Assembly (NCBI GenBank): GCA_963837465.1
Contig: CAWINB010000001.1
Coordinates: 139,915 to 203,914 of the forward strand
DNA length: 64,000 nucleotides
Reading direction: 5' to 3'
DNA from: Candidatus Doudnabacteria bacterium
GTDB lineage: Bacteria; Patescibacteriota; Doudnabacteria; UBA920
Under the pieces are notes generated by a model that was not told where the DNA came from, did no database searches, and worked only from the letters and a program-made list of their open reading frames with translations. Both the position numbers and the translations under genes were made by a program. This document shows positions 16,610 through 48,472 of the stretch, piece after piece. Each line of letters starts with the position of its first letter. Within the stretch, counting starts at the first letter, position 1.

Positions 16610-16674
16610 AGAGCAATGGGGCAAGTATATCAAAAAAGCCCCGGGAAATCCAGGGGCAATTTGTTTAAAGCAGG

Positions 16675-20760: not shown

Positions 20761-20777
20761 AGTGTTATCTCATGGCT

Positions 20778-20887
20778 TCCCATCCCGGAATTTTTCAGGG
20801 TTTTATCTGGAAAATATCCGGGATCCAGGTCGTCGCTTAGTTCTGAATCCCGGATATTTTTACAGCCCTAAAAATTCCGGGATGGGA
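20778..20887. repeat. Nested hairpin element (cccatcccggaatttttcaggg...ccctaaaaattccgggatggg with inner aaatatccgggat/atcccggatattt)
   Basis: Inverted repeats read directly; a half-copy recurs at 30736–30780. Confidence 0.55.
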
Positions 20888-20906
20888 ACACAACGCTTTG
20901 GCTTAT

Positions 20907-30480: not shown

Positions 30481-30735
30481 ATACCTTCATGGTAGCACAA
30501 AATTAATCCATATTCAAGCTAATTGGCGAAGGTCAATAGGAGATTGAACGGCATCGGATTTTCCAGCAGAGGGTGCTTAACATCAAGGAGAAAATTGACG
30601 TCAAAGATGTTGAGCTAAAAAGCTACACAAAATATGTGTTGGAGCATGGCAGTATTGTTGAGAAGCGGAATATTTTAAGCTGCTTAAAATCAAGACTAAT
30701 TTTTAAAGACAAAATTGTAACATTACTGTGATCTG

Positions 30736-30780
30736 GATCCCGGATATTTTTCAGATAAAGCCCTGAAAAATTCCGGGATG
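30736..30780. repeat. Half-copy of the 20778–20887 hairpin element (atcccggatatttttcag...ctgaaaaattccgggat)
   Basis: Near-identical to the right half of the 20.8 kb element; forms a hairpin. Confidence 0.5.
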
Positions 30781-30913
30781 ACGCCATCAGGCATAAACAA
30801 AAATACGGCCATCGCTGGTCGTACTTTTGTTTTCGGTAAAGGCATCTTTTATCGAGCTTAGGTCTAGAACTTAAAACTCCGCGCGCGCCTCGATAACTCG
30901 ATAAAAAATGTCT

Positions 30914-30987: not shown

Positions 30988-31317
30988 ATACAAACATTTG
31001 ACCTTTGACTTTTAACAATTAACTTTTCGGTCAAATGTCAGGCGTCAAAGGTCAAATGTTGCTAAACTATTTCGTTTCCTTGTGCAAAGTTTTCTTTTTG
31101 CAGAATTTGCAGAATTTTTGGAGTTCCAGGCGTTTTTGCGTGTTCTTTTTGTTCTTTTTGCTCTGGTAGTTCAGATTGTGACAAATTGCGCACTCCAGGT
31201 TTATGAGATGATCTTGGGACATTTTTTAAGAACCTTTGACATATGACATTTAACATTTAACCCTCTGCAGCGACAGGCGTTAATTGTTAATTGTCAATGA
31301 TTAATTGTTTGCTATAT

Positions 31318-31393: not shown

Positions 31394-31592
31394 ATTGGTT
31401 ACCTTAAACAGCAGGTAACTCAAAATATTTTACCATAAACCCAAAAAAAAATCCAGCGGTTCGTATAAAGACCAAAAACTGGATAAAACCGCCCCAATAT
31501 GATAAAATTGCCTATATTGTTAGGTTAATTGTTTCCGTCAAAGGCGGATCCGCCTTTGACGGAAAAGATAAAAGATTAAGGATAATTTTTAC

Positions 31593-31667
31593 GGCGCTAT
31601 CGTCTAACGGTTAGGACAAGTGGTTCTCATCCACTAAATCGGAGTTCGATTCTCCGTAGCGCTACCA
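31593..31667 (+). tRNA. tRNA-Glu (anticodon CTC), CCA encoded; 3' end overlapped by the recombinase gene
   Basis: Acceptor GGCGCTA/TAGCGCT, anticodon stem AGTGG/CCACT with loop TTCTCAT, T-arm CGGAG-TTCGATT-CTCCG. Confidence 0.8.
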
Positions 31668-33153
31668 AGACCAAACTTTCAGACAATTTAGATTTGTTCA
31701 CAAGGGCTGCCTTAAGGGCAGCCCATTGTGTTTGTGGGACAAATTCTATTTTTTGATTTTTTAAAAACAGGTTCGAACCGAAGATTTTTTGTGCAGCCGA
31801 TTTTTTGGGGTGCAATTCTGCGCCCTGCGTGATTGCGCCCAGGTTTTCTGCGTCTTTGAGCCATTGTGTCAGGGGTTCAAACCAGGCATCCCGCTTTTGT
31901 TCAAGACGGGCAATTTGCTCCTCCAAAGACTTCTTTTCCAAGACGAGCTTATTCTTTTCTTCTCGGTACTTCTCCCTCTCAATATCCTGGTCTAAATACA
32001 TATTCTGTAGTCTTTGGAGCCTGCGGTCAATGCCCTCAATTTTTGACCGCAGGTCTTTGACAAAAGCCGACGTGGACTGTGCGGACTGCTGCCGTTTCTG
32101 CTGGGCCATAGCTAAAAGCTTTTCTGCCCAGCCCTTGGGCATAATAAATTGTTTTAATGTTTCTGACAGCTGGTTGATTAAAACCTCGTCCCTAACAAAG
32201 GGCTGTGAGCAGACAACGTTTCTCTTGGTGCAATGGTAATAAACATAACGGTGAACGTTGCCGTTTTTTTGGCGCTTTTCCCTTTGCTCAGCAGTAACAC
32301 CCCGGCCGCACTCTCCGCAGTGGAATAATCCACAAAGCAATTGGGGGTTATTTTTAGTTTCCTTGTGCGGCCTGCCCCGATACTTTAAAACTTCTTGGAC
32401 TTTATCAAACAATTGCTTGCTAACGATTGGCTCGTGCTTGCCTTGATACAATTCGCCACCAAAGCGGAATAGTCCACAGTATATAGGGTTAGAAAGCATG
32501 TAGGAAATTTTATCCCGTTTGAAAAGTTTGCTGCCACGGGAAATTAATCCCTGACTTTTAAAAAATTCTCCTACATCCTCCAAACGGTACTGGTCTTTGG
32601 CATACAGCTCAAAAGCGGCTTTGACGATTGGCGCTTTGTTTTTATCAACAGCTATAGTTTTAGTCCTTAAGTCATTAATGTAGCCGATTGGAGCGAGGCC
32701 TGGGTATTCACCGCGCTTGGCTTTTTCGTACATGCCGCGTTTTGTGTTAGTGCTTAAATCTCTAACATACTGATTGGCAATACCAAACTCCATTTGCATC
32801 ATCAAAACATTATCAGCAGAATAATAACTTTTGTCATGGGTTTGAATATGCTGGATTGTGCCCTCTTGCAGCATCCAGCTAATTTGAGCAGCGTCCACAG
32901 GATTACGAGCTAATCTATCCAACTTCCAGCAGACTATGCCTTGGGCTTCACCTTTGTTAATACGGGCAAGCATATCAGTAAATACAGGGCGCCCGGGTCT
33001 TTTGGCCGACTGTTTTTCAACAAATTCGGAGGCAATATTTAAGCCCTGTTCTTTTGCTAAGGTCCTCAAAACAGCAAGCTGATCTTCAATAGACCGGACT
33101 TGCTTGTCTTCTACATCTGTGGATTTACGGGCGTATAAAAAGTAGCCTGGCAT
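31627..33153 (-). CDS. Large serine recombinase (integrase), intact
   Basis: N-terminal resolvase catalytic motif YARKSTD...Q, recombinase domain, zinc-ribbon cysteines (C..C...C..C), coiled-coil; the stop lies 40 nt inside tRNA-Glu. Confidence 0.9.
   Translation of the reverse strand: MPGYFLYARKSTDVEDKQVRSIEDQLAVLRTLAKEQGLNIASEFVEKQSAKRPGRPVFTDMLARINKGEAQGIVCWKLDRLARNPVDAAQISWMLQEGTIQHIQTHDKSYYSADNVLMMQMEFGIANQYVRDLSTNTKRGMYEKAKRGEYPGLAPIGYINDLRTKTIAVDKNKAPIVKAAFELYAKDQYRLEDVGEFFKSQGLISRGSKLFKRDKISYMLSNPIYCGLFRFGGELYQGKHEPIVSKQLFDKVQEVLKYRGRPHKETKNNPQLLCGLFHCGECGRGVTAEQREKRQKNGNVHRYVYYHCTKRNVVCSQPFVRDEVLINQLSETLKQFIMPKGWAEKLLAMAQQKRQQSAQSTSAFVKDLRSKIEGIDRRLQRLQNMYLDQDIEREKYREEKNKLVLEKKSLEEQIARLEQKRDAWFEPLTQWLKDAENLGAITQGAELHPKKSAAQKIFGSNLFLKNQKIEFVPQTQWAALKAALVNKSKLSESLVLVALRRIELRFSG
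31663..31790. repeat. IR-a, copy 1 (~120 bp; encodes the recombinase C-terminus and ends exactly at the tRNA-Glu 3' tACCA)
   Basis: Reverse complement is near-identical to 33590–33709. Confidence 0.8.
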
Positions 33154-33244
33154 AGCTTTTTGGTTTAAATGTTAAAATCTGTTATCATGATATTGATAGA
33201 ATATCATAACATTATCATACTATCAAATTAATAATATTACCGCA

Positions 33245-33445
33245 ATGCAAAATACTATTGGAGACAACATTAAAAAGAGACGTCTAAAACTCAAACTATC
33301 TCAAGAAGAGTTTGCCCAAAAGTCCGGCGTTAAATATACAACTCTAACAAAAATTGAGAGCGGGGTCATTAAAACTCCTTCGGTTTTAATTGCTGCTAAA
33401 ATAGCAAAAGGCCTAGCAATTTCTATTGAGGAGTTAATAAAGTAA
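33245..33445 (+). CDS. XRE-family HTH transcriptional regulator
   Basis: 66 aa; canonical HTH_3 (LSQEEFAQKSGVKYTTLTKIE). Confidence 0.75.
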   Translation: MQNTIGDNIKKRRLKLKLSQEEFAQKSGVKYTTLTKIESGVIKTPSVLIAAKIAKGLAISIEELIK

Positions 33446-33589
33446 CTTCTACAATTTTTTTATCAGGGAGCCCATAGCCTAAAGCTGCGCGAACTGGGAG
33501 GGTGGGTTAGCGGCTTTTCATTACTTAATTTTTTTGTTTCCTCTGCGTCTTGCGTTCTTGCGCCCTGCGTCCCCCAAAAAATCTTCCCT

Positions 33590-33709
33590 GGTTCCGAACC
33601 TGCTTTTAAAAAATCAAAAAATTGAATTTGTCCCACAAACACAATGGGCTGCCCTTAAGGCAGCCCTTGTGAACAAATCTAAATTGTCTGAAAGTTTGGT
33701 CTTGGTACC
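33590..33709. repeat. IR-a, copy 2 (inverted); gives rise to a 72-aa chimeric ORF at 33534–33752
   Basis: Near-identical inverted copy of 31663–31790; abuts IR-b at ggta/ccc. Confidence 0.8.
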
Positions 33710-34061
33710 CTTATTCGATATTTTACAAACCTATTATACCCAAAACAGCTGACCTTGGCTACCCTAAAACAGCTCTTGCTTAGGGCTGTTTTTTGATTTA
33801 AAATGGGGGTACAAACTAGTTGAACAGCTAGTTGAATCCGGGTTCAACTAGTAAAGTTCCTAAACACCCTAATTCCATTACCTTTTCTTAAACCACAAAC
33901 CTTGACTATCACCACGATTTCCACTGGCAGACAAAGAAAAATAATGGAAAGAAATACTAACTACTAAAATACTTAAAATACTACTATCTATATACTCTAA
34001 AAATATACTAAAATACCAAACTAAAAACTAACCAAAAACAGAAACAAAACAGGGTGCAAAA
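33706..34061. repeat. IR-b, copy A (~357 bp)
   Basis: Exact reverse complement of 45832–46189 over its full length as far as could be read. Confidence 0.85.
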
Positions 34062-34116
34062 TGGGGGTGGAAAAATTTTTGTGTCTTAACCGCCGCGATG
34101 AGCGGCGGGACAGGGG

Positions 34117-36909
34117 GTGGAAAAAACTAAGTTTGCTTTTATGTCAATCCCAAAACTCGCCTTGGCTTATCCGACAACTCACCCTGTAGCCCACAAAGTT
34201 CTATCCCCCGCAGCTAGCACCAAGGGTGCCGATTTTTTCACCGGTCCCCTGTATGCCAGTACCATTGGCAACCTTCCTGCGTGGGAGCGGACGACTTCAA
34301 ACATAGCGGGCTGCCTGTTCCTCGTAGTGATTGGCTACACTGTGCTCCACAAACTTGGCTTCTTCCCCAAACACGCCTTTGAAAAGATAAAGCTAAAAAG
34401 CAAGGACGTAGACAAATGGCTAGAGAACACTGTGTACTTTGAAATCACCATCCCCAAGAACTCCCAGGCCACGGCCTTTCAAATCCAGCAAAAGATATTA
34501 AAGGCCTTCCACTCAATATATATTGATCCGGTGGAAGGCGCACATAACTTTAGCAGCCTTTGGGAGTTTGTCTACTACTTCCAAAAGCTCTGGAGAAGAA
34601 GCAAAGTCAAACGCTCCCAAAAGACTTTCTTTAGTATGCAAATCTGGGCCCAGCACCCGTTCATTTCTTTTAGGCTCCAAGTCCACGAAGCTGACTTTAC
34701 CCGGGTGGAAAAAGCCATTTTTAACGCCTACCCAGCGGCAGAGATTACCATGTTAGACAAGTCCCAACCCCTTAAGGAAATTACCCAATTTTCCCAAGAC
34801 TTTTTAGCATATGGGGAGACAACTATAGAGGGGCCATTTTACCACAGACTGAAAACCTTTAAGGACGTATCTAGCGAGCCTGTAGATTCTATGGTCTCGG
34901 TCATGGAAGGCCTAAAGAAGGGCGAGTTTATGGTCTACAATGTCCTAATTTCTCCCTCTTCCCATTACTTTAACCAAATCCTCCATTACCTCATAGAAGA
35001 GCAGGAACAAATGGGAGCGGTAGATATGGGCAGACGCAGGTTGACTATCCAAAAGCGGGGCTCAGGCTCGGAATTGGCCAACGCTTTAAACTCGGCCATG
35101 ATTGAAAAGATGAAAGCTCCACTGTTCCAAACCATAATATCCTACTGGACGATAGCCGAAACCAAGAACGAGGCTGAGAATAAACTCCGCAGCATCCAAG
35201 GGGCTTTGACCGAGCTGAACCAAAAAAATATGAACACGCTTAAGTCTAAGCTGCTGTTTACCAAGCAGGTACAGAAACTTGAGCGTAAGGGCAAGCTGGC
35301 TGGCATAGTCAGCCAAAAGCCGGTGTTCAAGTTAAGACGTTTTCCGTTTTGGCCCTTTGCTAAGTTTAAAAACTATGGGCAAAAAATTTCTGACGGGGAG
35401 CTTTACTCCTTTTGGCATTTGCCTAATACCCAAGATGGGACGGTATCGTCCATTAACCTAACCAGATTTAAAAAGCTCCCGGCCAGTCAGCAAATCAGGC
35501 GCTACCCTAAGGACTTCTTTCTGTCCTTAGGCCATAGTAATTTCCGTATGCAGGATAACGCCCCCATTGGCATTGCCACTTGGGATGACTTAAAAAAGCA
35601 CGTTTACATCTTAGGGGGAACAGGAGCGGGGAAGTCCGAAACCTTGAAAACTATCTTAAATAGCCTGTTACAAAAACAAGGCCAGGAAAAGTGTGCCCTG
35701 CTCATCGTCGACCCCAAGAATGACTTTGCCACGGATTTGCTAACTATGATACCGGAAGACCGCAAAGCTGACGTAGTATATTTTAACCCCCAGAGACAAA
35801 AAGACCGCCCGTTGGCTTTTCCGTTCTTCTCCAAGTTTTCAGGACAAAAGACCGATGACGAAAAACTGGAGTTTTTAATCTCCATAATGAAAAGGTTTGT
35901 CCAGATAGATTCCGCTTTTTCCTGGGGGCCGGAGCTCGAAAATATCCTGCGCCAATTATTTGCTACGGCCTACATACTGCCCCAGCAGTCCCTGTCCGGC
36001 CTTGACCTGCTCCTGCACCAACCCGAGCAAATCGGCAGGATGATTCCCTTTTTACCCCCAAGACTTCAAAACTTCTGGTCTAACTCCATATTAAAGCGCA
36101 GCAGCAATGATTTGGCTAAGTATCTAGCCACTACCAACAACAAGCTGGGTAAGTTTTTGGATTACCCGGAGTTTATGAATATCGTGGACAGGCAAAACAC
36201 TAAAATTTCCTTTGAGGATATGATTAACCAAGGCAAGATATTTATCGCAAACCTTGGCTCCAGTAGCGAGCAGATGAAAAAATATTATTCTGTTTATCTC
36301 TCTGCCCACATTGCCGAGGCTATCTTTGGGCAGGCCAGACTTTCCAGCGAAAACAGAAAACCCACGGTCTTTGTGGTGGACGAGTTTCAAAGGGTGGCCA
36401 GTGATATCTTTGAAACCCTATTTTCCGAAGTTAGAGCTTTCAATACTGCTTTGGTAATCAGCAACCAATTCATGGGACAATTAGACCCAAGAATCCAAAA
36501 ATCCATAGAGTCCAACATTGCCACTAAAATCTTTATGCGTACCCAGTCGGTGGATGACGCAGAGATTGCCGAAAAGATTTTAGGCGGCAAGGCCTTAGTG
36601 GAGGACATTATCAACCTGCCCACTGGCACGGCTTACATTAAAACCTTAGTTTCGGGTGTGCCGCAGGACGCAATGTCGATAAACATTAAAAAGACCGAGC
36701 ACCACAGGGAAAACGCCAAAGAAACCGAGGATTATTTTATTCAGCAGACTATGGAAAAATACGGCACGCCGCAGGACGATATTATCTGGGAACGCACCGC
36801 CGTAAATTCCATATACTATTCAGGTGACAACGAGGAACAGTTTAGTAAAGCTATGAGTCAAAAAAAGACGACTGCCGAGACGGCAGGTGAAGCGGAGAAG
36901 CAGCCTTAA
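34117..36909 (+). CDS. Membrane-anchored P-loop ATPase, TraD/VirD4/TcpA-like (AAA-like/DUF87) conjugative coupling-type protein
   Basis: N-terminal TM helices; Walker A ILGGTGAGKSE; Walker B VFVVDEFQRV; 930 aa. Confidence 0.5.
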   Translation: MEKTKFAFMSIPKLALAYPTTHPVAHKVLSPAASTKGADFFTGPLYASTIGNLPAWERTTSNIAGCLFLVVIGYTVLHKLGFFPKHAFEKIKLKSKDVDKWLENTVYFEITIPKNSQATAFQIQQKILKAFHSIYIDPVEGAHNFSSLWEFVYYFQKLWRRSKVKRSQKTFFSMQIWAQHPFISFRLQVHEADFTRVEKAIFNAYPAAEITMLDKSQPLKEITQFSQDFLAYGETTIEGPFYHRLKTFKDVSSEPVDSMVSVMEGLKKGEFMVYNVLISPSSHYFNQILHYLIEEQEQMGAVDMGRRRLTIQKRGSGSELANALNSAMIEKMKAPLFQTIISYWTIAETKNEAENKLRSIQGALTELNQKNMNTLKSKLLFTKQVQKLERKGKLAGIVSQKPVFKLRRFPFWPFAKFKNYGQKISDGELYSFWHLPNTQDGTVSSINLTRFKKLPASQQIRRYPKDFFLSLGHSNFRMQDNAPIGIATWDDLKKHVYILGGTGAGKSETLKTILNSLLQKQGQEKCALLIVDPKNDFATDLLTMIPEDRKADVVYFNPQRQKDRPLAFPFFSKFSGQKTDDEKLEFLISIMKRFVQIDSAFSWGPELENILRQLFATAYILPQQSLSGLDLLLHQPEQIGRMIPFLPPRLQNFWSNSILKRSSNDLAKYLATTNNKLGKFLDYPEFMNIVDRQNTKISFEDMINQGKIFIANLGSSSEQMKKYYSVYLSAHIAEAIFGQARLSSENRKPTVFVVDEFQRVASDIFETLFSEVRAFNTALVISNQFMGQLDPRIQKSIESNIATKIFMRTQSVDDAEIAEKILGGKALVEDIINLPTGTAYIKTLVSGVPQDAMSINIKKTEHHRENAKETEDYFIQQTMEKYGTPQDDIIWERTAVNSIYYSGDNEEQFSKAMSQKKTTAETAGEAEKQP

Positions 36910-36955
36910 TTTTTTTCAAATTTAATTTTAAAATTTTTACTCATTTAAAACAAAT

Positions 36956-37837
36956 ATGGAACTTCAACTGACCCCGCGACAGGAACTTAAAGCCTACAAC
37001 ATCAGGCTCAACCAAGGCACCTTGGAAATTTTGACTTTGGTGTTTGAATTTAAAATTGCGGCAGCGTGGCACATTTCCAGGCTTCTGTCCGGGCGTGACC
37101 AAAGCAAGTATGTTTATCTCAAGCTCCGCCGGATGTGGCAGGCTGGCTACTTGGACAGCTTTAAACTATTTACCGGCTCTATGGCAGGAGTGCCTTTGTA
37201 CTACATGCTCTCAAAATCTGGCCTAAAAGTTTTACTTAAAGAAAACCTCTACAGTCCTAGCCAAATATCCAAGTACCCGTCTCCCCAGATTTTGTTTTCT
37301 TCCGGGCTATTTGAGCATGAAAAGGATGTGGTGGAACTGGCCAGCAAGGAAGCCAAAAATCAGACCAAGGATTTAAAGATTAAGTTTAAGGGCGAGATAG
37401 CCTCTCAAGGCACGGACTTTATGGACGACAAGACCATTGAAGCCTTAACCCCCGACTATACGGTGCTATATACTTATCCAAACCAAACACAAATCGTTTA
37501 CAGCGAACTGGAACGCACCCAAAAGGGCAAGCAGGCCATGCTCCGCAAGGTAGAGCGTTACAAAAATTTCCTGAAACCCGAGCAGCTTAAAAACAGAACT
37601 TTAAGGCTTATTTTTCAAACGCCAGAAATGGAAGCCAGCTTTTGGCTGAACATTTATACTAACCGACCCGGGCTTTTAAATACCATTAGGCTAGTAACCA
37701 CCAATACTTTACTGCTTAAAGACCATAACAAATTTGTGGAAGAAATTTATGCTACCCACAAAACAATTAAGCTATCCAAGCCTGTGAGGTTAGTAGTAGA
37801 CACTTCTAAAAGGATAAAGCTGTTTGAGTTTTTGTAA
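36956..37837 (+). CDS. Hypothetical protein, possibly replication-relaxation family (winged-helix N-terminus)
   Basis: Weak resemblance only; adjacent to the coupling-type ATPase. Confidence 0.3.
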   Translation: MELQLTPRQELKAYNIRLNQGTLEILTLVFEFKIAAAWHISRLLSGRDQSKYVYLKLRRMWQAGYLDSFKLFTGSMAGVPLYYMLSKSGLKVLLKENLYSPSQISKYPSPQILFSSGLFEHEKDVVELASKEAKNQTKDLKIKFKGEIASQGTDFMDDKTIEALTPDYTVLYTYPNQTQIVYSELERTQKGKQAMLRKVERYKNFLKPEQLKNRTLRLIFQTPEMEASFWLNIYTNRPGLLNTIRLVTTNTLLLKDHNKFVEEIYATHKTIKLSKPVRLVVDTSKRIKLFEFL

Positions 37838-37952
37838 AGACGTTAGGTTAAAAAATTTTAATCAGTTTTTTAACGCCCAAACTAATTGCTCTATTATCTT
37901 ATCGCCCATGAATTTAGCCACCCTTTTCAGAGTGGCTAAATCTTGTATAGGA

Positions 37953-38114
37953 TTAAACTTCAAAGTATTTTTTGATGTTTAAATTGCTGGGGCCGCAACC
38001 CGGACAGGTAACGGTGTCCAGGTCAATGACTTCTTCCCGGCTGGCGCTCCAGCAATTCTGGCAGTTAGGGCAAGTGATTAAATACTGAAAGTAAGCTGTT
38101 AGTGTTTTTAGCAT
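37953..38114 (-). CDS. Small zinc-ribbon protein (53 aa; CPNC...CPGC)
   Basis: Translated by hand from the minus strand; too short for the ORF track; two CxxC pairs. Confidence 0.35.
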   Translation of the reverse strand: MLKTLTAYFQYLITCPNCQNCWSASREEVIDLDTVTCPGCGPSNLNIKKYFEV

Positions 38115-38224
38115 TGTTTTAAAGTTAGTTGTTTAAGAAAGATTTTTGTTTTGGTATTAGTTTAAATTGTGTATCATTCTCCTTTCCTTTGGCTTAATTA
38201 TCATGGCCAAATAGCACTGGCCGA

Positions 38225-38320
38225 AAGTTTTAGGTGTCAACGGGATTGAAAATATTTTATGCCCCACGGGAAATAAATTATTTTCACCCTTGAGCATCCT
38301 AAAAACCGGACAGTATAATG
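38225..38320. repeat. Promoter-bearing ~96 bp repeat, copy 1 (ggtgtcaacggga...tataat)
   Basis: Shares ggtgtcaacggga, the tttatg stretch, gataaa and the -35/-10 layout with 39603–39698. Confidence 0.5.
38290..38319 (+). promoter_or_regulatory. Sigma70-like promoter (TTGAGC-18-TATAAT) inside repeat copy 1, upstream of the 229-aa ORF
   Basis: -35 and -10 hexamers read directly. Confidence 0.45.
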
Positions 38321-38379
38321 AGGGCAGATAAGGAAGCAAAGGAAAAGCTGTTCCCATTTAGTTTTATTTTTGATATATT

Positions 38380-39069
38380 TTGAACATGAATACATTACCA
38401 ACAATGCACACTGGCGGAGTAGAATTTTTTAGGTTTGCCGACCTGCAGTCGCTAGACGAGGCCAGGTATTTTGAATGCATGGATTCGCTAAGGCCGCTTT
38501 TTGAAAATCCTGATTTCAAAAATTCAACCCCGGGGTTTTACATAAACTACATTTCCAACCAGCCGGACGACGGCTTAATTTCCTTACGCCTAACTTACTA
38601 CACCATCGACCCTGCCAAAACCCAAGAGAATATAACAAAATTTGTTAGCAATAACAAAAACGGCCTCGCTCTGTTTGACTCCAAATGGACTGGTCGTCCC
38701 GAAGCAAATCAAATTTTGAGCATGCCCGAAAAGGAGGAGATGGATTTTAGAAATTTTTTAAACCGCAATACCCAAATCGCTTTAGAGGTATTAAAAAGTT
38801 TTGGGGTAAAACAATTTCGGGACTTAGTTTTAAACTATCGCCATAGGCAATTACTGCAAGGAGTACCACCCGCGGTCATCTTTAAGCAAGTCTTTGAACA
38901 GCATAGCGGCTATTACAGCCAGCTAAAAAAAGACTTCTTGGCAAGCGAATATTGGACTGGCTTGATCCGACTTTTCCATGGGCAAAATCCAGGGCTACAT
39001 TTTTTGGTAAATATGCTAGCCTTACCTGAAGCCCAATATTATTCAGCTTCTCCCGAAGCCATTTTATAA
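38380..39069 (+). CDS. Hypothetical protein (229 aa)
   Basis: No recognised domain. Confidence 0.4.
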   Translation: MNMNTLPTMHTGGVEFFRFADLQSLDEARYFECMDSLRPLFENPDFKNSTPGFYINYISNQPDDGLISLRLTYYTIDPAKTQENITKFVSNNKNGLALFDSKWTGRPEANQILSMPEKEEMDFRNFLNRNTQIALEVLKSFGVKQFRDLVLNYRHRQLLQGVPPAVIFKQVFEQHSGYYSQLKKDFLASEYWTGLIRLFHGQNPGLHFLVNMLALPEAQYYSASPEAIL

Positions 39070-39073
39070 TTTT

Positions 39074-39556
39074 CTACATCAGCCCTTTATCTCTAAAGCT
39101 GGCATAAAATTCAGCTGTTACAATCACGTGATCTAAAACTTCTATGCCAAGAAGTTTTCCGGCATCTTTCAGACGCTTGGTAACTGCGAGGTCTTCGTCA
39201 GATGGCTCCAGACTGCCGCTGGGATGGTTGTGAGCAACAATCACTGAGCAGCAGTTTTTTAATATAGCTGTCCTGAATGTTTCCCTTGGATGAATTAAGC
39301 TGGCGTTTAATGTGCCAATGCTTATTACTTCCTTACCTGTTATTTTGTTTTGAGTGTCAAGAAAAAAGACGCAAAAGTATTCTTTTTTAGCTTTTCTGAA
39401 ACTCTTGCATTTTTCAGCCACTTGAGCTGGGCTGTAAACACCTTCTGGCATAGGCTTAATTTGCAAGTTTTCGTTAACATAATTTTTGGCTTTTTCGTTA
39501 GCCTCGGATTCGTTCTCCGCGGTAAACTGATAATTGATGTTAATTTGGTATTCCAT
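39074..39556 (-). CDS. RadC-like JAB/MPN-domain protein
   Basis: JAMM motif HNHPSGSLEPSDED, conserved Ser and Asp; 160 aa. Confidence 0.85.
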   Translation of the reverse strand: MEYQININYQFTAENESEANEKAKNYVNENLQIKPMPEGVYSPAQVAEKCKSFRKAKKEYFCVFFLDTQNKITGKEVISIGTLNASLIHPRETFRTAILKNCCSVIVAHNHPSGSLEPSDEDLAVTKRLKDAGKLLGIEVLDHVIVTAEFYASFRDKGLM

Positions 39557-39602
39557 AAAACTCCTTTTTGTTTACTTGTTATGGAGCAAGCAAACCGACC
39601 GC

Positions 39603-39698
39603 AGGTTTTTGGTGTCAACGGGACTAAAACCGATTTTATGGCTTACGGCAGATAAAGAGGTTTTACCCTTGCACACCCAAAAAACGGCCGGTATAATC
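39603..39698. repeat. Promoter-bearing ~96 bp repeat, copy 2 (TTGCAC-17-TATAAT), followed ~70 nt later by a terminator
   Basis: As copy 1; near-consensus sigma70 spacing. Confidence 0.5.
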
Positions 39699-39767
39699 TA
39701 AAACCCACAAGGAAACAAAAAGTTTTTGGTTTAAATTGGCGCGCCTAATGCTTTATCATTGAAATAG

Positions 39768-39799
39768 AAAAAACCATCCAGCAAATTGGATGGTTTTTT
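39768..39799. terminator. Bidirectional rho-independent terminator (aaaaaaccatccagcaaattggatggtttttt)
   Basis: Perfect 8 bp stem with A- and T-tracts on both sides; lies 3' of the giant minus-strand gene. Confidence 0.7.
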
Positions 39800-39835
39800 C
39801 TTACGCGCTCGAGCGAGGACGTTTTTGTAGTTCTT

Positions 39836-42800
39836 TTACTTTAGGCTGTTAATAAAGTTCCGGGTTAAGGTATCTAGCGCGCCAGTAGCGGCACTAATAC
39901 CGATTTGAGTTTTGTATTGGCTCTGAAATTTCTTTAAAGCGGCTTTGGTTGCAAGACCAAACAAAGTGGTTTCGTGGCCTGGGGAGCCAATTACTCCATT
40001 TGGCGCGACTGGGAAATTATTTTGGTTTAAAAATTGCTGCAAGGCAGTGACGTCTGCGCCTTTGCTTAAGTAACCAAGATTTCTGGCAAAGGTCATGGAC
40101 GGAGGAACGAGGCCGGTTGCCTGATTGGTTGCAGAAGTAGCAGAACTGGAAGTTTGACCCAGTATTTGGCCAGCAATTTGAGATTGTATTGTGTAAGGGG
40201 CTTTAGTGCCTTTTAGTACGGTTAACTTCTCCCCACTCTGGCCTTGGTAGGTTTGGAAGCTTGAAAAAGTATCAAAAGGATACAAACCACTTGGCTTAAC
40301 CAGGTAAATGGTAGGATTTCCTTTAAACTGCAATAACTGCCCATCGTGAACATTATAGGGCAGAACTATGGTAACAGTACTTGGGTTATTGGTAGTTGGT
40401 AGGGTAATCCCTATGGGTGGAAATGGTAATGTCTGTGGTGGGGTTGATGTAGGGGTGGAAGTTGAAGCAGGTGGCAAGGTTACCACAGTTCCTGCCGCGG
40501 CTAGAGTGGTAAATATGTAATCCCCTGAGGCATTAAACTGTAAGTTAGGGTCTTTAACCCTAAAATGGTAAGTGGTGGCAGGGTTTAGGCTGGTTAGGGC
40601 AAGACTGTGGTTTGTTACAGATGTAGAACTGGAAACTATGGAGCCGTAACTATTAGTTAAACCATAGTCTATGGCAGAGCCAATTTGGTAATTAGTCTGC
40701 CAAGTAACAATGGTTGATGTTGCCGTTGTGGAAGCAACCGTAACATTACTAAAGCTGGCATAGGTCGCTCCGCCTCCGCCTCCTGAGCTGACAACATTGG
40801 TAGTGCAGGAAACGGATACATTGGTAATGTTAGATGAGGCTACTGTACCGGTGCCGTTAGTGATATTGCAAGTCTGGCCGGACGGCTGAGTTAAAACCGT
40901 GACGCTATATGTACCGCCGGTGCTAGTGGCCGTGGCGAAAATAAAGCTAGTATTAGTTGTGGTGCTTATATTATCCCCGCCATTGTTTTGCAAAACCACG
41001 GTGCCGGTTAAGCCAGAAATACTGCCGCCAATTGTGTAAGTTGGATTATTGGAACACGAAACTGAAACATTGCTAACATTTGCCGAAGACACTGTACCGC
41101 TGCCGTTAGTTACATTACAGGTCTGTCCAGAAGGCTGCGTTAAAACCGTAACGGAGTAACTGGCACTATTATTTAAAGCTGTAGCAAAAGTAAAAGTACC
41201 ATTAGTCGAAGTGCTATAGTTATCGCCACCGTTATCTTGCAACACCACTGTACCCGAGAGACCCGATATGGTGCCGCCGATAGTGTAAGTTGTTAGCGCT
41301 ACATATTGATACGCGCCCATGTCCCAAGGTCCTGTTGTTGGTCGACTATTGCCAGCCGCATCGGTTGTGGGCAGCCCTGCTGATGTTAATACACTAGTAA
41401 GATTTGTTCCTGTTTGGTAGGCTGGCGAAGCAGAGGAAGATAATTGTAAATTGGTAGAACTAATAAATTTTGGATCCGCGTTAGCCCCGTGTGACTCTTG
41501 ACTATTACAGGTCGCAGATAAATATAAGGGCCAATTTCCCCAGCAACCAGTCAACCCGGTCAAACGAACTGGATTACTTATATTTGTCCATCCATAAAAA
41601 TCATCATAATCAGATGACCAACCTGCGGTGGTGGTTGCGTCTTCAGAATATATAGCAGCTTGAGAGCCAGCGAAAATGTTATTCCTAACAGTGAGACTGG
41701 GAACAGGCCCGCCTGCAAGGCCAGCTGTTATAAGTCCTTGCCAAGCAGCCTGGGGGCTACTGGTGTCCATGTTGAAAGAATTATTATAAATATAGGCTTG
41801 TCCACCAGGAACAGTATAAATATTCATATAATTCATCTCAATCACAGTTCCTCCATTTGAAGCGGAATCCCATCCATGATTATTATAAATGTAGACCGGT
41901 CCTGCCGTACCAGAAAAATACATAAAAGCAGTCACGCCAGTTTCCGCAGGAGGATTGGCTCCAGAGGTGGAAATACTAGAAGATTGTGTCCAGCTTGTAC
42001 CCGTTGTTATTGGCGTGGAATTTTGTTTATAAAGCGTACTGCTCTCCCCCGCGGTACTAAAATACACATTCCATCCTGAAACTGGTGAACATTCCGGAGG
42101 AGAAGAAACTTGGATGGCCTGATTCGGAGCGGATGTGGTAATTGAAGCCTCGGGAGAAAAATTACTTTCACTTACGCCTACGCAGGTCGTCTCAACATAA
42201 TAAGTTCCAGCAACAGGAGCTGCTCCGGAAACACTAATAAGCGCTGGCGTAGTTGTTGGGAACTGTACATAGTTGCTCCAGTTCCCATAAAAATAATTAT
42301 TATAAATAAACTCATTTGTAGTGTAAGACGATGGGTCGTTTGACACAGAAGAGAAAGTAAAAATACCGTCAGTATGATATCCCGCGCTGGCCATCTGATT
42401 GTGAAAATCGTGAATTAAGTTATCATGAATAGATACCCCATTTATTACGGTATTGGCATAAGGAGTTGAGATTGCGATACCCCACGTACAGTTTGAAATA
42501 TCGTTGCCACTAAATGTGATGTTTTGTAACGTTTTTGAAGTACCGTCACCGGGTCGGTAATAAATAGCAATCCTTGCGTATACTGACAAAACCATATTCT
42601 TCACTGTTATATTTGAGCTGGAGCCTTGAATTACGACAGCTTCATTGCCTTGGTTTATTCCTACCACTCCGATATTTTGCAGTTGTAGATTGTCCATTGT
42701 AATATATGAGCCCGTGATCAAAAAGTACCCGTTCATTTGCGAAGGAGATACGGTATTTTGGCTTCCTCCATCAAAAATAGGCCGTGTCCAAGAACCTCCT

Positions 42801-45229
42801 GAATACCAGCTTTTGTTTATACCATAATAATCCGGCGTCCCGGATGCTCCAGAATTAGTTATATTCCACGGTGCAATAGTGTTATCCCAAGTTATTCCAC
42901 CCCTGAATATAAATTGGTCGCCAGGATTATGTGTGTAGGTTCCGGAAAATCCCTGCATACCAGGCGCGCGCTGCCAGGGCGTGGAGGTAGAAGTCCCATT
43001 ATTTGAGTCACTTCCGTTTTGAAAATCAATATAATAAATTCTTGCCTGTGTTGTTGCAGTTGCTGTAGTGCTGCTCGCAGATGTATTTCCAATTGCATCA
43101 AAAGCATCCACATAATAACTATAAGTGGTGCTGGCATTAAGTCCGGTGTCAGAATAAGAGGTTAGCGAGGTAGTGGCTATGTGTAAATTGTTTCGGTAGA
43201 TATCATAACCGGTCACGCCAACATTATCCGTAGAGGCGTTCCAAGTAATATTAATTTGGCTGGCGGATGTTGTTGAAGCGGTAAGGCTAGCGGGAACGGA
43301 TGGAGGCTGAGTATCTATATAAAATGTGCCATCAGTCGTGGTGGCAACATTACTTTGGGCATCAGTTGAGGAAATTTGGTAATGATAGGTGGTATTATTA
43401 GTAAGACCGGTTAAGGTAATGGAATGGCTAGTCACCAGAGCCGGAGTGGACGAAGACGAACCATAACCTGAACTAGTACCATAATTTATTAGCGAGTTAG
43501 CGGAATGATTTGTGGTCCAGCTAAAAGTGGCCGTGGATGATGCGGTGGTAGTGGAAACACCTGAAATTATAATCGGATTTTCAATATTGACCGTCGTTGA
43601 GGCGGTGGAAGTATTGCTTGAGGTATCGGTAGATAAAGCCCAGAGAGTGGTTGAGCCATTGGCAACAGCAGTTGTGTTCCAAAGTATGGAATAAAGATTA
43701 CCACTTGGGGTAGTAGTTGAATTTATTAGAGTACTGGAGGCAAATGTGCCGCCATAACTCCCGTAGTAGAAAGCCACGCTCCCTACCGCTACGTTATCTG
43801 TAGAAGAAGCGGTTAAGGTAGTCGAACCTGAAATAAGGGCGTTATTGGCAGGAGAAGTCCAGGCAACATTAGGAGCCGTAAGGTCTGGCACAAAATATTG
43901 GTCAGCGCCAATGTCCCATGTACTGCCGCGGCTTTGACCGTCTATGTCTGTGGTAAAATTTAATGGAGATGAATCACCAGAAGTATTAGTACCCACACCT
44001 TTTAGAGCCGAACCAGATGTTATGTGATAATCTTCACTCCCAGGAGTAACATTTATAAATGTGGCAGTGCTGGTAGCAATTCCGGTTAAGCCTGCTGTTC
44101 CACTAGCATCTCGACTTGCACAGGTGGTTTTTGTAATCGTCCCAAAATAATCACTAAGCGCCCCTCCGCCAGCATAAGTGTTTTTGCATACTACTGTTCC
44201 GCCCGTTTGCCTTATGCCAACACGGGCATTAATCACAGTTGAGCTATAAATGTTAACGGAATTTGAACTGCTTGTAAGAATCCCAGTCTCGTTAGATAAA
44301 TTTGGTACAAAGTTGAATAGGATTGTATTCCAAATATTTACTTTAGCATTTGCAGCACTAATATTTATACCGTTTTGATTATAGGTTGGGTCACCGCTTG
44401 CTTTAATAATAGAATTTGATAAATCGGCTTCGTTAAATGCGCCATTATCCAAAAAATTTAAAATATTGCGGTTTACGACTGTAGGACTTACATTTGTTAA
44501 TTGTAATCCATCTAGTTTTATAAAGTCTATGCTTCCAACGTTGATAGCATAATTATCCGTCGGTGACAAATACCATTTAGTTGTATCCCATTTTCCGGCG
44601 GCTCGCTGGCTTTGATTGACTTCAGCCGTAGTGCTTGTTGGTGTATAAATTCGAATGTAATGGGTAGCATCGGTGGTTAAACTTTGAGCATTCACTCCTG
44701 TTGTGTCCGGTCCGGTATCATAATAAACAGGAACATTCAAAACCACATCAGCGGAAACAAGGCTTGTGGTCGCTATATGATTAGTATCAGAAGCCTTAGG
44801 CGTTCCATTGAATACATTGTTCAAACTAGAAAATGCGTGGGCAATAGAATTTACAGTGGCGTTACTTACATTACTGCAAGGAGCGCCCAGGGCTGTAACT
44901 AAATTCCAGACAGAAGTGGATGTTTTAGAAGCTATGTAACAGATGGAAGAAGTGTTAAAGGTGACCTGATCTCCTACACCGAGGTTGGTGGCAGTCTGAG
45001 CATAGTTGAAAGTAGCTTGCCCCGCTCCTCCGGCAATAGTCATGGTGCAGGCACCCGTGGTTGAACAAGTGGCTCCTCCAGCTCCAATACTATGGTCGCT
45101 GGTATTTTGCCCGACAGAATAATATACATTGGCCGTGGCAGAGGCTTTCCCAGCCAGAGAAAAACCACACCCTATAAACACCACAAAAAATGCCAGTAAG
45201 GTTAATTTGTTTTTTAAAAATTTAGTCAT
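39836..45229 (-). CDS. Giant secreted surface protein (1797 aa): signal peptide, parallel beta-helix (pectate-lyase-like) region, Ig/FN3-like repeats, C-terminal peptidoglycan-binding domain
   Basis: N-terminal signal/TM (LLAFFVVFIGCGFSLAG); repeated TYTIGG(T/S)ISGL(S/T)GTVVLQ(D/N)NGGDN modules; beta-helix style N..I..N repeats; C-terminal GADVTALQQFL...PNGVIG...T..A..KFQ (PG_binding_1-like). Confidence 0.8.
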   Translation of the reverse strand: MTKFLKNKLTLLAFFVVFIGCGFSLAGKASATANVYYSVGQNTSDHSIGAGGATCSTTGACTMTIAGGAGQATFNYAQTATNLGVGDQVTFNTSSICYIASKTSTSVWNLVTALGAPCSNVSNATVNSIAHAFSSLNNVFNGTPKASDTNHIATTSLVSADVVLNVPVYYDTGPDTTGVNAQSLTTDATHYIRIYTPTSTTAEVNQSQRAAGKWDTTKWYLSPTDNYAINVGSIDFIKLDGLQLTNVSPTVVNRNILNFLDNGAFNEADLSNSIIKASGDPTYNQNGINISAANAKVNIWNTILFNFVPNLSNETGILTSSSNSVNIYSSTVINARVGIRQTGGTVVCKNTYAGGGALSDYFGTITKTTCASRDASGTAGLTGIATSTATFINVTPGSEDYHITSGSALKGVGTNTSGDSSPLNFTTDIDGQSRGSTWDIGADQYFVPDLTAPNVAWTSPANNALISGSTTLTASSTDNVAVGSVAFYYGSYGGTFASSTLINSTTTPSGNLYSILWNTTAVANGSTTLWALSTDTSSNTSTASTTVNIENPIIISGVSTTTASSTATFSWTTNHSANSLINYGTSSGYGSSSSTPALVTSHSITLTGLTNNTTYHYQISSTDAQSNVATTTDGTFYIDTQPPSVPASLTASTTSASQINITWNASTDNVGVTGYDIYRNNLHIATTSLTSYSDTGLNASTTYSYYVDAFDAIGNTSASSTTATATTQARIYYIDFQNGSDSNNGTSTSTPWQRAPGMQGFSGTYTHNPGDQFIFRGGITWDNTIAPWNITNSGASGTPDYYGINKSWYSGGSWTRPIFDGGSQNTVSPSQMNGYFLITGSYITMDNLQLQNIGVVGINQGNEAVVIQGSSSNITVKNMVLSVYARIAIYYRPGDGTSKTLQNITFSGNDISNCTWGIAISTPYANTVINGVSIHDNLIHDFHNQMASAGYHTDGIFTFSSVSNDPSSYTTNEFIYNNYFYGNWSNYVQFPTTTPALISVSGAAPVAGTYYVETTCVGVSESNFSPEASITTSAPNQAIQVSSPPECSPVSGWNVYFSTAGESSTLYKQNSTPITTGTSWTQSSSISTSGANPPAETGVTAFMYFSGTAGPVYIYNNHGWDSASNGGTVIEMNYMNIYTVPGGQAYIYNNSFNMDTSSPQAAWQGLITAGLAGGPVPSLTVRNNIFAGSQAAIYSEDATTTAGWSSDYDDFYGWTNISNPVRLTGLTGCWGNWPLYLSATCNSQESHGANADPKFISSTNLQLSSSASPAYQTGTNLTSVLTSAGLPTTDAAGNSRPTTGPWDMGAYQYVALTTYTIGGTISGLSGTVVLQDNGGDNYSTSTNGTFTFATALNNSASYSVTVLTQPSGQTCNVTNGSGTVSSANVSNVSVSCSNNPTYTIGGSISGLTGTVVLQNNGGDNISTTTNTSFIFATATSTGGTYSVTVLTQPSGQTCNITNGTGTVASSNITNVSVSCTTNVVSSGGGGGATYASFSNVTVASTTATSTIVTWQTNYQIGSAIDYGLTNSYGSIVSSSTSVTNHSLALTSLNPATTYHFRVKDPNLQFNASGDYIFTTLAAAGTVVTLPPASTSTPTSTPPQTLPFPPIGITLPTTNNPSTVTIVLPYNVHDGQLLQFKGNPTIYLVKPSGLYPFDTFSSFQTYQGQSGEKLTVLKGTKAPYTIQSQIAGQILGQTSSSATSATNQATGLVPPSMTFARNLGYLSKGADVTALQQFLNQNNFPVAPNGVIGSPGHETTLFGLATKAALKKFQSQYKTQIGISAATGALDTLTRNFINSLK

Positions 45230-45315
45230 CGTAAAAAAATAAAAAGCCCGTCAAAAACGGAGCTTAATTAGAAATATTAAGTTTGTATAATCGCAAAACT
45301 GGCGAGCGTGTTTTA

Positions 45316-45337
45316 CTCTCTCTCTCTCTCTCTCTCT
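45316..45337. repeat. (CT)11 dinucleotide microsatellite in the 5' region of the giant surface-protein gene
   Basis: ctctctctctctctctctctct read directly, ~90 nt upstream of the start at 45229 (minus strand). Confidence 0.9.
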
Positions 45338-45364
45338 GCTAGCGCGTTTAAGATTTTGGACATT

Positions 45365-45667
45365 TTAGTTTTTTTCTGGTAATTTTTGTAAGGCTCGGGC
45401 TTTAATCTCTTCTAGGGTGTCGGCCGGTACTGACTTGCCGAGAATCCTTTCAGCCAGTTCCAGCATTTTATTTAAGCTTGGTTGACTTTTAAATTTATCC
45501 GCTATGATTTCCTGAGCACCTTCTTGGGCAGGAGTTTTATCCTCAACAGTTATCCCGGATAAGTGAAGCATTGAGACATAGGCGGATAAAAGTCTGGCAC
45601 ATTCTTCCAGATAAGCCGGGCTGTCTTCGGGCTTAGGGACCAATTCTAGTCTATTAGGATAATCCAT
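45365..45667 (-). CDS. Hypothetical protein (100 aa)
   Basis: No recognised domain. Confidence 0.4.
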   Translation of the reverse strand: MDYPNRLELVPKPEDSPAYLEECARLLSAYVSMLHLSGITVEDKTPAQEGAQEIIADKFKSQPSLNKMLELAERILGKSVPADTLEEIKARALQKLPEKN

Positions 45668-45831
45668 AATTACTACAGCTCTTTATACAAATATTATAGT
45701 ATATTTTACGATTTAAAGCCAGGATTGACTAAGTATTAGATTTGCTAGACATTTTGGGCCTTGTTTATTGGTCAGTTTTCCCGTATTTTTCTATGTTTTT
45801 TGCTTTTCTCCACCACCCCCACCCCCCCTGT

Positions 45832-46189
45832 TTTTGCACCCTGTTTTGTTTCTGTTTTTGGTTAGTTTTTAGTTTGGTATTTTAGTATATTTTTAGAGTA
45901 TATAGATAGTAGTATTTTAAGTATTTTAGTAGTTAGTATTTCTTTCCATTATTTTTCTTTGTCTGCCAGTGGAAATCGTGGTGATAGTCAAGGTTTGTGG
46001 TTTAAGAAAAGGTAATGGAATTAGGGTGTTTAGGAACTTTACTAGTTGAACCCGGATTCAACTAGCTGTTCAACTAGTTTGTACCCCCATTTTAAATCAA
46101 AAAACAGCCCTAAGCAAGAGCTGTTTTAGGGTAGCCAAGGTCAGCTGTTTTGGGTATAATAGGTTTGTAAAATATCGAATAAGGGTACC
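45832..46189. repeat. IR-b, copy B (inverted); overlaps the last 30 codons of the second recombinase
   Basis: Reverse complement of 33706–34061. Confidence 0.85.
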
Positions 46190-47703: not shown

Positions 47704-47754
47704 GCTTCGCTCTCAGATCACCGATCATATTGCTACGGACGAGTCGTCGCGTGG

Positions 47755-48471: not shown

Positions 48472-48472
48472 A

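Follow-up and report, generated by a model that had tools for sequence, protein, structure and literature searches.

How does an element integrated at a tRNA gene come to hold, between its two ends, a third junction of the same make that points the other way? The question arises at a tRNA-Glu(CTC) gene of a Candidatus Doudnabacteria bacterium, in a 64,000-nucleotide stretch of contig CAWINB010000001.1 (referred to below as the window), where the gene for a large serine recombinase (LSR), Rec1, runs into the tRNA 3' end from the opposite strand. A preliminary description of this DNA had drawn attention to the recombinase, the tRNA and three recombination-type junctions, here called J1, J2, and J3. 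We think it probable that the locus is a tandem array built by LSRs at tRNA-Glu(CTC), and that the middle junction, J2, is a second, inverted attP that is typical of the family to which Rec1 belongs. The features on which the argument turns are listed first.

31593-31667, plus strand: tRNA-Glu(CTC), the integration target (ARAGORN; Rfam tRNA, 60.6 bits; sequence).
31668-46185: element A, carrying intact Rec1.
31627-33153, minus strand: Rec1, intact large serine recombinase of 508 amino acids (Pfam PF00239, PF07508, PF13408).
31663-31667: J1, core TACCA, attR-type, joining the tRNA to the P arm of element A.
31668-31791, minus strand: P1 arm, the Rec1 3' coding end and left att arm, with a GC hairpin and the palindrome GGTTCGAACC (31770-31779).
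33575-33702, plus strand: P2, a non-coding inverted relic of the Rec1 3' end.
33703-33707: J2, core TGGTA, internal and attP-type, joining P2 to Q and inverted relative to J1 and J3.
33708-34061, plus strand: Q arm, proximal copy, with T-arm-like ACAAACC 17 nt from the core (33725-33731), followed by a stop codon and a terminator hairpin.
34062-45831: cargo module Y (Pfam, PHROGs, open reading frames).
45832-46185, minus strand: Q arm, distal inverted copy, 100% identical to the proximal copy.
46186-46190: J3, core TACCA, attL-type, joining the Q arm of element A to the body (U) of a second recombinase, Rec2, in unit B1.

The core of the three junctions had been given as GGTA. Base-level comparison lengthened it to five nucleotides, TGGTA (TACCA on the other strand), which is the complement of tRNA-Glu positions 72-76, and aligned all three junctions at a single common breakpoint. 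Read in the recombinase sense, J1 is AAAGTTTGGTCT-TGGTA-GCGCTACGG (P-core-tRNA), J2 is AAAGTTTGGTCT-TGGTA-CCCTTATTCGAT (P-core-Q), and J3 is AATCGCCGA-TGGTA-CCCTTATTCGAT (U-core-Q), and so the middle junction is, as had been claimed, a perfect hybrid of the other two. Two inverted repeats accompany the junctions. One, at 31663-31775 and 33595-33707, is 113 nt long with 98% identity and is degenerate out to 31791/33575; it is the inverted recurrence of the recombinase 3' end that had been placed near 33590-33709. The other, at 33703-34061 and 45832-46190, is 359 nt long with 100% identity by local alignment, which refined the 33703-34070 / 45823-46190 given by the repeat search. The two repeats abut, overlapping in the TGGTA at 33703-33707, and their length and identity lie far beyond what chance can account for. 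Resolvase, Recombinase, and Zn_ribbon_recom domains are all present in Rec1, as expected of the intact enzyme previously described; its gene overlaps the tRNA by 41 nt (40 had been stated), and its final 12 codons are antisense tRNA-Glu. The whole pattern agrees with the earlier proposal of serine-recombinase exchange at a short core in the tRNA-Glu 3' end, being the one that conservative strand exchange would give. The junction sequences support J1 and J3 as the recombinant ends, attR and attL, of element A. J2 has the sequence of a complete, un-recombined attP in inverted orientation, which we infer to be active. Either orientation of cargo Y and of the integrase module is compatible with all of the junction sequences.

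Element A is not alone at this site. The island, 31668-59345, is a tandem array in the order tRNA, A, B1, B2, B3, trailer, with element A followed by three units of a second family. The preliminary description had overlooked this stacking of four units, and its list of junctions lacked three more, at the GCTACCA sequences given here.

46184-47452, minus strand: Rec2, a 5'-truncated large serine recombinase pseudogene, in B1.
46191-52699: unit B1, with the Rec2 remnant, Pycsar PycC and PycTM, and others; QB arm at about 52475-52692, then GCTACCA at 52693-52699.
52700-55424: unit B2, with an M23 peptidase and without a recombinase; QB arm, then GCTACCA at 55418-55424.
55425-59345: unit B3, with a Hypoth_Ymh protein and a SET-domain protein and without a recombinase; QB arm, then GCTACCA at 59339-59345.
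59346-59476, plus strand: native tRNA-Glu 3' trailer with terminator (blastn, 85% identity to locus L003; sequences).

The QB arm is about 225 nt long, ends in ..CGTTCGATGTATGTCCCGTCTCGG-GCTACCA, and is present in three direct copies (52475-52699, 55196-55424, and 59117-59345). The sequence that follows differs after each copy, and after the last it is the native trailer. Only 5-7 nt of tRNA sequence are repeated at the unit boundaries, and a search of the window for displaced tRNA 3' fragments with a 24-nt tRNA 3' pattern, 3 mismatches allowed, found that pattern only once. In 1-kb windows, a G+C content of about 0.40 gives way at about J3 to one of 0.52-0.57, which is maintained up to about 59 kb. 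The sole recombinase among the B units, Rec2, is dead. PF07508 (recombinase) and PF13408 (zinc ribbon) are found in both Rec1 and Rec2, but the resolvase-domain match of Rec2 begins only at profile position 52 (Pfam), and all upstream frames are closed (three-frame translation). By tblastn, Rec2 aligns to residues 71-493 of a 511-residue frame in a relative, locus L060, and some 57 N-terminal residues after the first Met of that frame, including the catalytic Ser, have no counterpart in Rec2. The Q sequence had been taken for the C terminus of this second recombinase, and here the preliminary description was mistaken: the listed open reading frame (46097-47449) does have its end encoded by Q, but homology to the L060 protein stops at 46184, adjoining the core, and thus the Q-encoded tail is foreign to Rec2. 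Rec1 and Rec2 read Q in different frames.

The tRNA-Glu 3' end was scanned in one genome per species, 63 Patescibacteria loci in all. In L003, from another Candidatus Doudnabacteria genome, the tRNA end ..GTAGCGCTACCA runs directly into CGAGTTTCCGTTATCGAGGG, which matches window positions 59346-59476 with 85% identity (blastn). On this sequence L003 is an unoccupied site, of the kind for which a search of related genomes had been suggested. Locus L060, likewise from Candidatus Doudnabacteria, encodes a full-length Rec2 homolog (48% identity, catalytic motif YVRVSTQRQ) whose frame enters tRNA-Glu as ..FTSG/SATENRTPIT. This is the U-core-tRNA arrangement. The reciprocal U-core-T junction, envisaged earlier as an alternative arrangement at the window's own locus, thus exists as the normal state of a Rec2 homolog in a relative.

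These arrangements suggest an order of events. B3 and B2 would have inserted first at the tRNA-Glu 3' end, then B1 with Rec2, which would at that time have ended inside the tRNA as the L060 homolog still does. Element A would have inserted last, Rec1 recombining an attP (P-core-Q) with the tRNA-proximal U-core-T to yield J1 (P-core-T, attR) and J3 (U-core-Q, attL). We place the B units before A because Rec2 is dead and A is proximal to the tRNA.

Is the inverted junction peculiar to this genome? Rec1 has many homologs (4916 hits at E<=1e-20). Its PF00239 match covers residues 5-149 (E 1.6e-23), R9, K10, and S11 are invariant in a family alignment of 32 sequences, and the nearest solved structures are the A118/LI and SPbeta integrases (4KIS, the A118/LI C-terminal domain, E 1.5e-10). 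The best-matching relative, P0001, is 90% identical and encoded on an 868-kb contig; exact-sequence protein look-ups for Rec1, P0001, and P0008 gave no match. In the same alignment the C termini are conserved to '..ILV', followed in 31 homologs by '..LV/xxGIEPxx', a tail that is the antisense translation of the tRNA T-arm. We sampled the family at 80 metagenome loci, of which 61 had at least 80 nt beyond the integrase match and could be used to count tRNAs. A convergent tRNA gene overlapped the integrase 3' end in 48 of these 61, with 13 amino acid specificities represented, and four further loci had tRNA-like arms that ARAGORN missed. At L101, L126, and L131 the integrase ends abut tRNA-like acceptor and T-arm sequences without an ARAGORN call; these may be intron-containing tRNA genes, which have been reported for Patescibacteria (PMC13011429).

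In about 50 of the 80 loci the final 90-170 nt of the integrase gene recur as an inverted copy, a family-wide conservation of the J2 copy that had previously gone unnoticed. The copies lie about 0.3-9 kb upstream of the integrase gene, are 73-100% identical to its end, and stop 3-9 nt (mode 5) inside the tRNA; a tblastn peptide search recovered P2 relics in 43 of the 80. Two loci, L088 at tRNA-Gln and L138 at tRNA-Asn, show the whole three-junction layout with both inverted repeats abutting. In each, an inverted P repeat surrounds the integrase module and an inverted Q repeat, of 252 nt (100%) in L088 and 244 nt (94%) in L138, surrounds a 5-6-kb cargo; the repeats meet at a core of 3-4 nt, GCT in L088 and GCTC in L138. 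The cargo of both consists of restriction-modification genes, and L098 carries a type III-like system. L088 is also a hybrid, with an integrase gene (10010-11571) 90% identical to the L082 lineage and a P2 plus Q segment (8054-8346) 93% identical to the L140 lineage, a mosaic that points to module exchange between related elements. No inverted integrase-end copy was found in the B units or in other recombinase families beside tRNA-Glu, with the possible exception of L018, where a 197-nt repeat (93%) of the tRNA-proximal arm lies at 6781-6977, about 6.6 kb away, beside a different serine recombinase family.

The arms of these sites show what the enzyme may recognize. The Q arm is conserved family-wide as, roughly, core, 15-17 nt, (G)CTCGAACCTATTT, and the tRNA arm as core, 11-13 nt, TCGAACC. 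In the window, the distance from the core is 13 nt for TCGAACT in the tRNA (T-arm AGTTCGA at 31643-31649) and 17 nt for ACAAACC in Q. Measured from a common anchor, the Q motif was exactly 4 nt farther out than the tRNA motif in all 15 scorable loci. For the LI/A118 integrase, attP and attB share one zinc-ribbon motif, which lies 5 bp nearer the center in attB (PMC3783163). Given this precedent, the 4-nt offset identifies Q as a putative attP-type half-site and the T-arm as a putative attB-type half-site; the enzyme would read the T-arm (TCGAACC antisense) as attB-type and its mimic in Q, 4 nt farther out, as attP-type. A comparable shift in the second family, with GTTCGAT 16 nt from GCTACCA in the QB arm and 10 nt from it in tRNA-Glu, is a single observation.

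Sequence identity at the crossover is confined to 5 nt in the window, 3 nt in L088, 4 nt in L138, and 7 nt in the B units. Taken together, the cores (positions 72-76 in the window, 72-74 in L088, 71-74 in L138) confine the crossover to tRNA positions 72-74, where none of the dinucleotides is a palindrome in every one of these loci. The sites are therefore probably polar, and J2 would then be truly inverted relative to J1 and J3. A palindromic crossover TA within GGTACC, which would have allowed excision of a module, was considered and set aside as not general, since positions 72-74 give GT/TA here and GC/CT in L088 and L138.

The shifted distal motif was found in one arm only, the left arms having no motif. 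Among tRNA-type sites, the left arms (the native trailer, the Rec2 end, and those of other elements) are mutually unrelated, which suggests that only the right arm is read specifically. Such a reading would explain tandem insertion beside foreign elements, here and probably at L083. In L083, about 9 kb (8150-17358) separate the integrase end from a tRNA-Glu(ttc)/tRNA-Ser(cga) pair. Related integrases have this pair as their immediate neighbor, and L083 probably holds a further tandem array whose newer element sits beside the tRNA. Inspection by eye for P/Q symmetry, and for a TCGA mirrored in the native left arm, gave signals that were weak or not in register.

Two further features of the P arms were noted. 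The FGSNL codons of the integrase read GGTTCGAACC or GGCTCGAACC, a T-arm-like sequence about 105-115 nt from the core (window 31770-31779; about 10 related loci); the Ser codon is TCG in 9 of 11 genes read from alignments, and the motif is disrupted in P2. In addition, a GC-rich hairpin was present 45-65 nt from the core in all of the P arms inspected (window 31703-31723), within the codons for W-A-A-L-x-A-A. The hairpin sequences vary among lineages, and the structure may be a terminator facing the convergent tRNA.

Across 37 loci, P1/P2 identity falls with distance from the core, from 95% at 0-40 nt to 84% at 80-100 nt and 66-73% at 100-160 nt, reaching background beyond 160 nt; in the window, the 84 core-adjacent nucleotides are identical, followed by two mismatches and then indels. 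Over the proximal 100 nt, P arms have a median identity of 94% within an element and 51% between elements. In its distal part P2 has a recurrent 7-10-nt insertion, seen in most of ten aligned loci, that breaks the frame and disrupts the P1 codons GGC TCG AAC CTG (FGSNL). The broken frame together with the core-proximal identity indicates that P2 is an old, non-coding paralog whose core-proximal part has been repeatedly homogenized with P1. We infer that gene conversion starting from the cores, or selection to keep the left arm functional, lies behind the gradient. A small protein consisting of the integrase C-terminal domain was also considered for P2 and rejected on the frame-breaking length difference of 5-12 nt and the disrupted motif in many loci.

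Several loci have arrangements other than the canonical one, and these speak for use of the spare site. In L097 the relic P2, with its typical insertion, directly abuts the tRNA-Leu 3' end, with the integrase gene downstream in the same direction; L105 is probably flipped in the same way. In five loci the integrase 3' end is joined to a Q arm rather than to a tRNA. L117 and L140 have near-identical P and Q arms, with the integrase end on Q in one and on the tRNA in the other, and L098 has two inverted P/Q sites with diverged Q arms on one contig.

The reading that we prefer can now be stated in full. The attP of the family would span the end of the integrase gene, so that integration exchanges the last codons of Rec1 for antisense tRNA, and J2 would be an intact second attP built from the P2 relic and a second Q arm. 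The excised circle would then contain two inverted attP sites dividing an integrase module from a cargo module, and integration could proceed through either. Once integrated, each module would be bracketed by inverted repeats and potentially invertible, and the repeats would be held identical near the cores by gene conversion, selection, or both. The second attP might be kept for integration through either site, for inversion of modules, for cassette exchange, or for a role like that in the yeast 2-micron plasmid, each of these being, taken singly, an unlikely reason. A wider proposal, which we hold only tentatively and rate as improbable, is that the family is an integron-like, tRNA-anchored cassette system in Patescibacteria, with one-armed sites and a factor-free reversible reaction by which recombinase-less cassettes are captured, flipped, and exchanged. 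The specific arm would be the tRNA T-arm or its mimic shifted 4 nt outward, integration, excision, and inversion would be one reaction, and the cassettes would be Y here, B2 and B3 in the second family, and the restriction-modification cassettes of L088, L138, and L098.

A number of points weigh against an array with a usable second attP. L003 and the window share only the tRNA and the 130-nt trailer, gene synteny being absent. The P arms have neither a conserved motif nor dyad symmetry with Q, which is unusual for the attP of an LSR, and the absent motif leaves the tracking of P1 by P2 unexplained. The inverted copy is not universal: by our tally, several loci with at least 4 kb of upstream sequence lack P2, and L172 has only a truncated relic of 61 nt. 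Canonical and alternative orientations stand at about 48 to 2-7 across related loci, which makes free flipping unlikely. A terminal-overlap test for circular contigs was negative on 24 short family contigs. Excision, inversion isomers, and the two-attP circle are predictions from sequence alone for the window, and inserting A before the B units would produce the same map. In the viral collection there was no match to the exact J2-flank patterns, and the best hit of a family profile scan was 33% identical, with no close relative; the Rec1-family elements are not catalogued as viruses. L172, a 68%-identical family member at tRNA-Lys, deserves separate mention: its relic is 100% identical (7612-7672 and 11365-11425), has lost the part nearest the core, and lies directly against a DNA polymerase III delta-like gene (PF21694). 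L172 is a decayed and probably immobile element.

A rival view is that J2 is a decaying, functionless remnant, left when part of the integrase end and the region downstream of it were duplicated in inverted orientation, or when a second element inserted head to head. P2 is non-coding and frameshifted and has the recurrent insertion in many loci, some family members lack P2 or have it truncated, and the function of J2 is predicted from sequence. However, the relic spans lineages targeting 13 tRNA types, near the core P2 matches P1 at about 95% whereas the P arms of different elements diverge by about 50%, the Q motif keeps its fixed +4 offset in 15 of 15 loci, and in L097 it is P2 that has recombined with the tRNA. 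Such a pattern of conservation is unexpected of a neutral relic, and we consider this explanation unlikely.

The integrase module (P'..Rec1..P) and the cargo module (Q..Y..Q') could instead be separate mobile units, with circular forms closed at a palindromic P/P' or Q'/Q site. They would have come together by successive insertion at the tRNA, or by fusion and resolution of a cointegrate, with recombinase-less cassettes mobilized in trans as in integrons. Each module indeed has its own inverted repeat ending at the core, and related integrase modules have wholly different cargo (restriction-modification in L088, L138, and L098, ATPase, Rep, and adhesin here). In the three complete examples the Q repeat also has a higher identity than the P repeat (100 versus 98% here, 100 versus 76% in L088, 94 versus 86% in L138), L088 pairs the integrase of one lineage with the P2/Q of another, the second family includes the recombinase-less B2 and B3, and J2 and J3 contain the palindrome GGTACC. 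Against this, a crossover within positions 72-74 has no shared palindromic dinucleotide, so that antiparallel exchange would not be generally allowed; the P arms have no recognizable half-site motif; and a P/P' or Q'/Q junction occurs in none of the loci. Taken together, this leaves the two-unit history with a low probability.

Rec1 might also be an invertase acting on J1 and J2 (and on J2 and J3), a phase-variation device that flips the integrase module or the cargo; a flip of the integrase module would switch Rec1 expression relative to the convergent tRNA. The layout fits a segment that can invert and that contains its own recombinase gene, the flipped arrangement is seen in L097 and probably in L105, and the unrelated left arms at tRNA junctions suggest that the left arm is unread, which would make J1 a competent partner for J2. 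The strong bias to one orientation (about 48 to 2-7) speaks against it, as does the terminator that directly follows the core in Q and makes read-through control of the cargo unlikely, and in the standard LSR model attR is inert without a directionality factor (PMC3783163). We regard this device as quite improbable. An assembly artefact, in which reads from an excised circle (P-core-Q) were mis-threaded into a contig with the integrated form, might be suspected from the perfect hybrid at J2, the 100% identical Q copies, and an arrangement known from the assembly alone, but it is hardly credible, since P2 has diverged with indels beyond 113 nt that no artefact could create, the Q copies continue into different unique sequence, and the layout recurs in independent assemblies, one of them a 693-kb contig.

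With a tRNA-anchored array and a second, inverted attP as the favored reading, the remaining contents of element A are as follows.

33245-33445, plus strand: Cro/CI-type helix-turn-helix (HTH) gene of the integrase module, divergent from Rec1 (Pfam HTH_3; PHROGs repressor families; tblastn).
34117-36909: TraG/FtsK-like ATPase, cargo Y.
36956-37837: nicking-type Rep/relaxase-like protein, cargo Y.
39074-39556: RadC, cargo Y.
39836-45229: surface protein of 1797 amino acids, cargo Y.

The HTH gene is kept beside the integrase in L064, L078, and L066. No candidate directionality factor for Rec1 was identified, this small gene being the only neighbor. Homologs of the Y ATPase lie beyond the inverted copy in L139 and L084 and occur also in L071. 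Within the cargo, a direct repeat of about 100-130 nt (70-75%; 38188-38319 and 39566-39697) flanks a 229-amino-acid open reading frame and RadC, and the surface protein gene contains an internal tandem duplication (40806-41043 and 41055-41292, 71%). The nicking Rep-like and coupling-type ATPase genes brought up the possibility of a single-stranded hairpin attP, as in CTX phage. The mechanism excludes it, because a serine recombinase cuts all four strands and the chromosome would be left broken with two hairpin caps.

Unit B1 encodes a complete Pycsar anti-phage system on the minus strand (47755-48988), comprising the PycC cyclase (47755-48534; PADLOC, E 1.8e-82) and the 2TM/PycTM effector (48473-48988; E 5e-54). 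Beyond the trailer, the sequence at 59730-60231 is a direct repeat (502 nt, 95%) of the B2 end at 54814-55312, and a partial QB arm without a core lies at 60113-60237; this flank probably holds another decayed unit. The 130-nt trailer itself (window 59346-59476; L003 5519-5648) has a terminator hairpin at its end, is 85% conserved between non-syntenic genomes, and matches no Rfam family; it is perhaps a co-transcribed small RNA, perhaps simply a conserved terminator region. An Rfam scan of 29-64 kb detected no RNA family besides three tRNAs. Directly upstream of tRNA-Glu is a near-perfect palindrome of 24+24 nt at 31525-31572 (TTAATTGTTTCCGTCAAAGGCGGA / TCCGCCTTTGACGG..), and related inverted repeats surround tRNA-Trp and tRNA-Thr (30991-31311). 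The chromosomal part of the window also contains three imperfect palindromes of about 110-165 nt (6472-6631, 16439-16600, and 20777-20888; 74-76%) and a 63-nt inverted repeat with 89% identity (20769-20831 and 30730-30790).

In a literature search that had subscription journals outside its coverage, we found no description of the Rec1 family or of a retained inverted attP, and the conserved internal inverted attP appears to be a new architecture. For the insertion of large DNA into genomes, serine integrases are the principal tools, and the rules for their sites come from a handful of phage enzymes. Here, a family of thousands seems to locate its targets by way of the universal tRNA T-arm, to have a built-in mimic of it at a fixed offset, and to tolerate unrelated sequence on the other side. 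If confirmed, the Rec1 family would be a natural test set for the way half-site spacing encodes attP versus attB identity. The locus also shows how defense and transfer genes are stacked at a tRNA gene in the reduced genomes of Patescibacteria, with Pycsar here and restriction-modification in relatives.

Small serine invertases such as Hin and Gin act on 26-bp sites with the help of an enhancer. Element A is like them in having a serine recombinase gene inside a segment bracketed by inverted recombination sites; it differs in having a 508-amino-acid large integrase, sites of the attR and attP types, and one strongly dominant orientation. In the integration-dependent immunity of mycobacteriophages BPs and Brujita, which involves tyrosine integrases, a degradation tag has a regulatory role. 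As in those phages, the 3' end of an element gene contains the att core, and the protein tail differs between the free and the integrated state, although we saw no indication here that tails of 12 versus 15 residues matter. The yeast 2-micron plasmid has FLP target sites (FRT) inside two long inverted repeats, FLP being a tyrosine recombinase that acts on identical sites, whereas LSRs normally do not recombine attP with attP. The predicted circle of element A would likewise have two long inverted repeats, each containing a recombinase target, and would be split into a recombinase-bearing and a second unique segment; a role in amplification would be pure analogy.

With phage-type large serine integrases (A118/LI, SPbeta, phiC31, Bxb1), Rec1 has in common the resolvase, recombinase, and zinc-ribbon domains and a very short crossover identity, 3-7 nt. 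As with LI integrase, a motif is shifted between phage-type and host-type half-sites, by +4 nt here and by 5 bp in LI (PMC3783163). In contrast to those enzymes, the targets here are tRNA 3' ends of many specificities, apparently reached via the T-arm; one arm per site looks sequence-specific; the attP lies across the end of the integrase gene; and a second, inverted attP is kept inside the integrated element, with no directionality factor identified. Finally, genomic islands and tandem arrays at tRNA genes are known from tyrosine integrases, among them the tycheposons of Prochlorococcus (10.1101/2020.12.28.424599); a search of that paper confined to three terms gave no passage on the present architecture. 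Such islands resemble the Doudnabacteria one in integrating at tRNA 3' ends with the tRNA left intact, in having the newest element beside the tRNA (as we propose here), and in having scars at unit boundaries and defense-rich cargo. Unlike in those islands, both recombinases here are of the serine type rather than the tyrosine type, and the boundaries consist of 5-7 nt of tRNA sequence and a conserved element arm instead of a displaced tRNA fragment.

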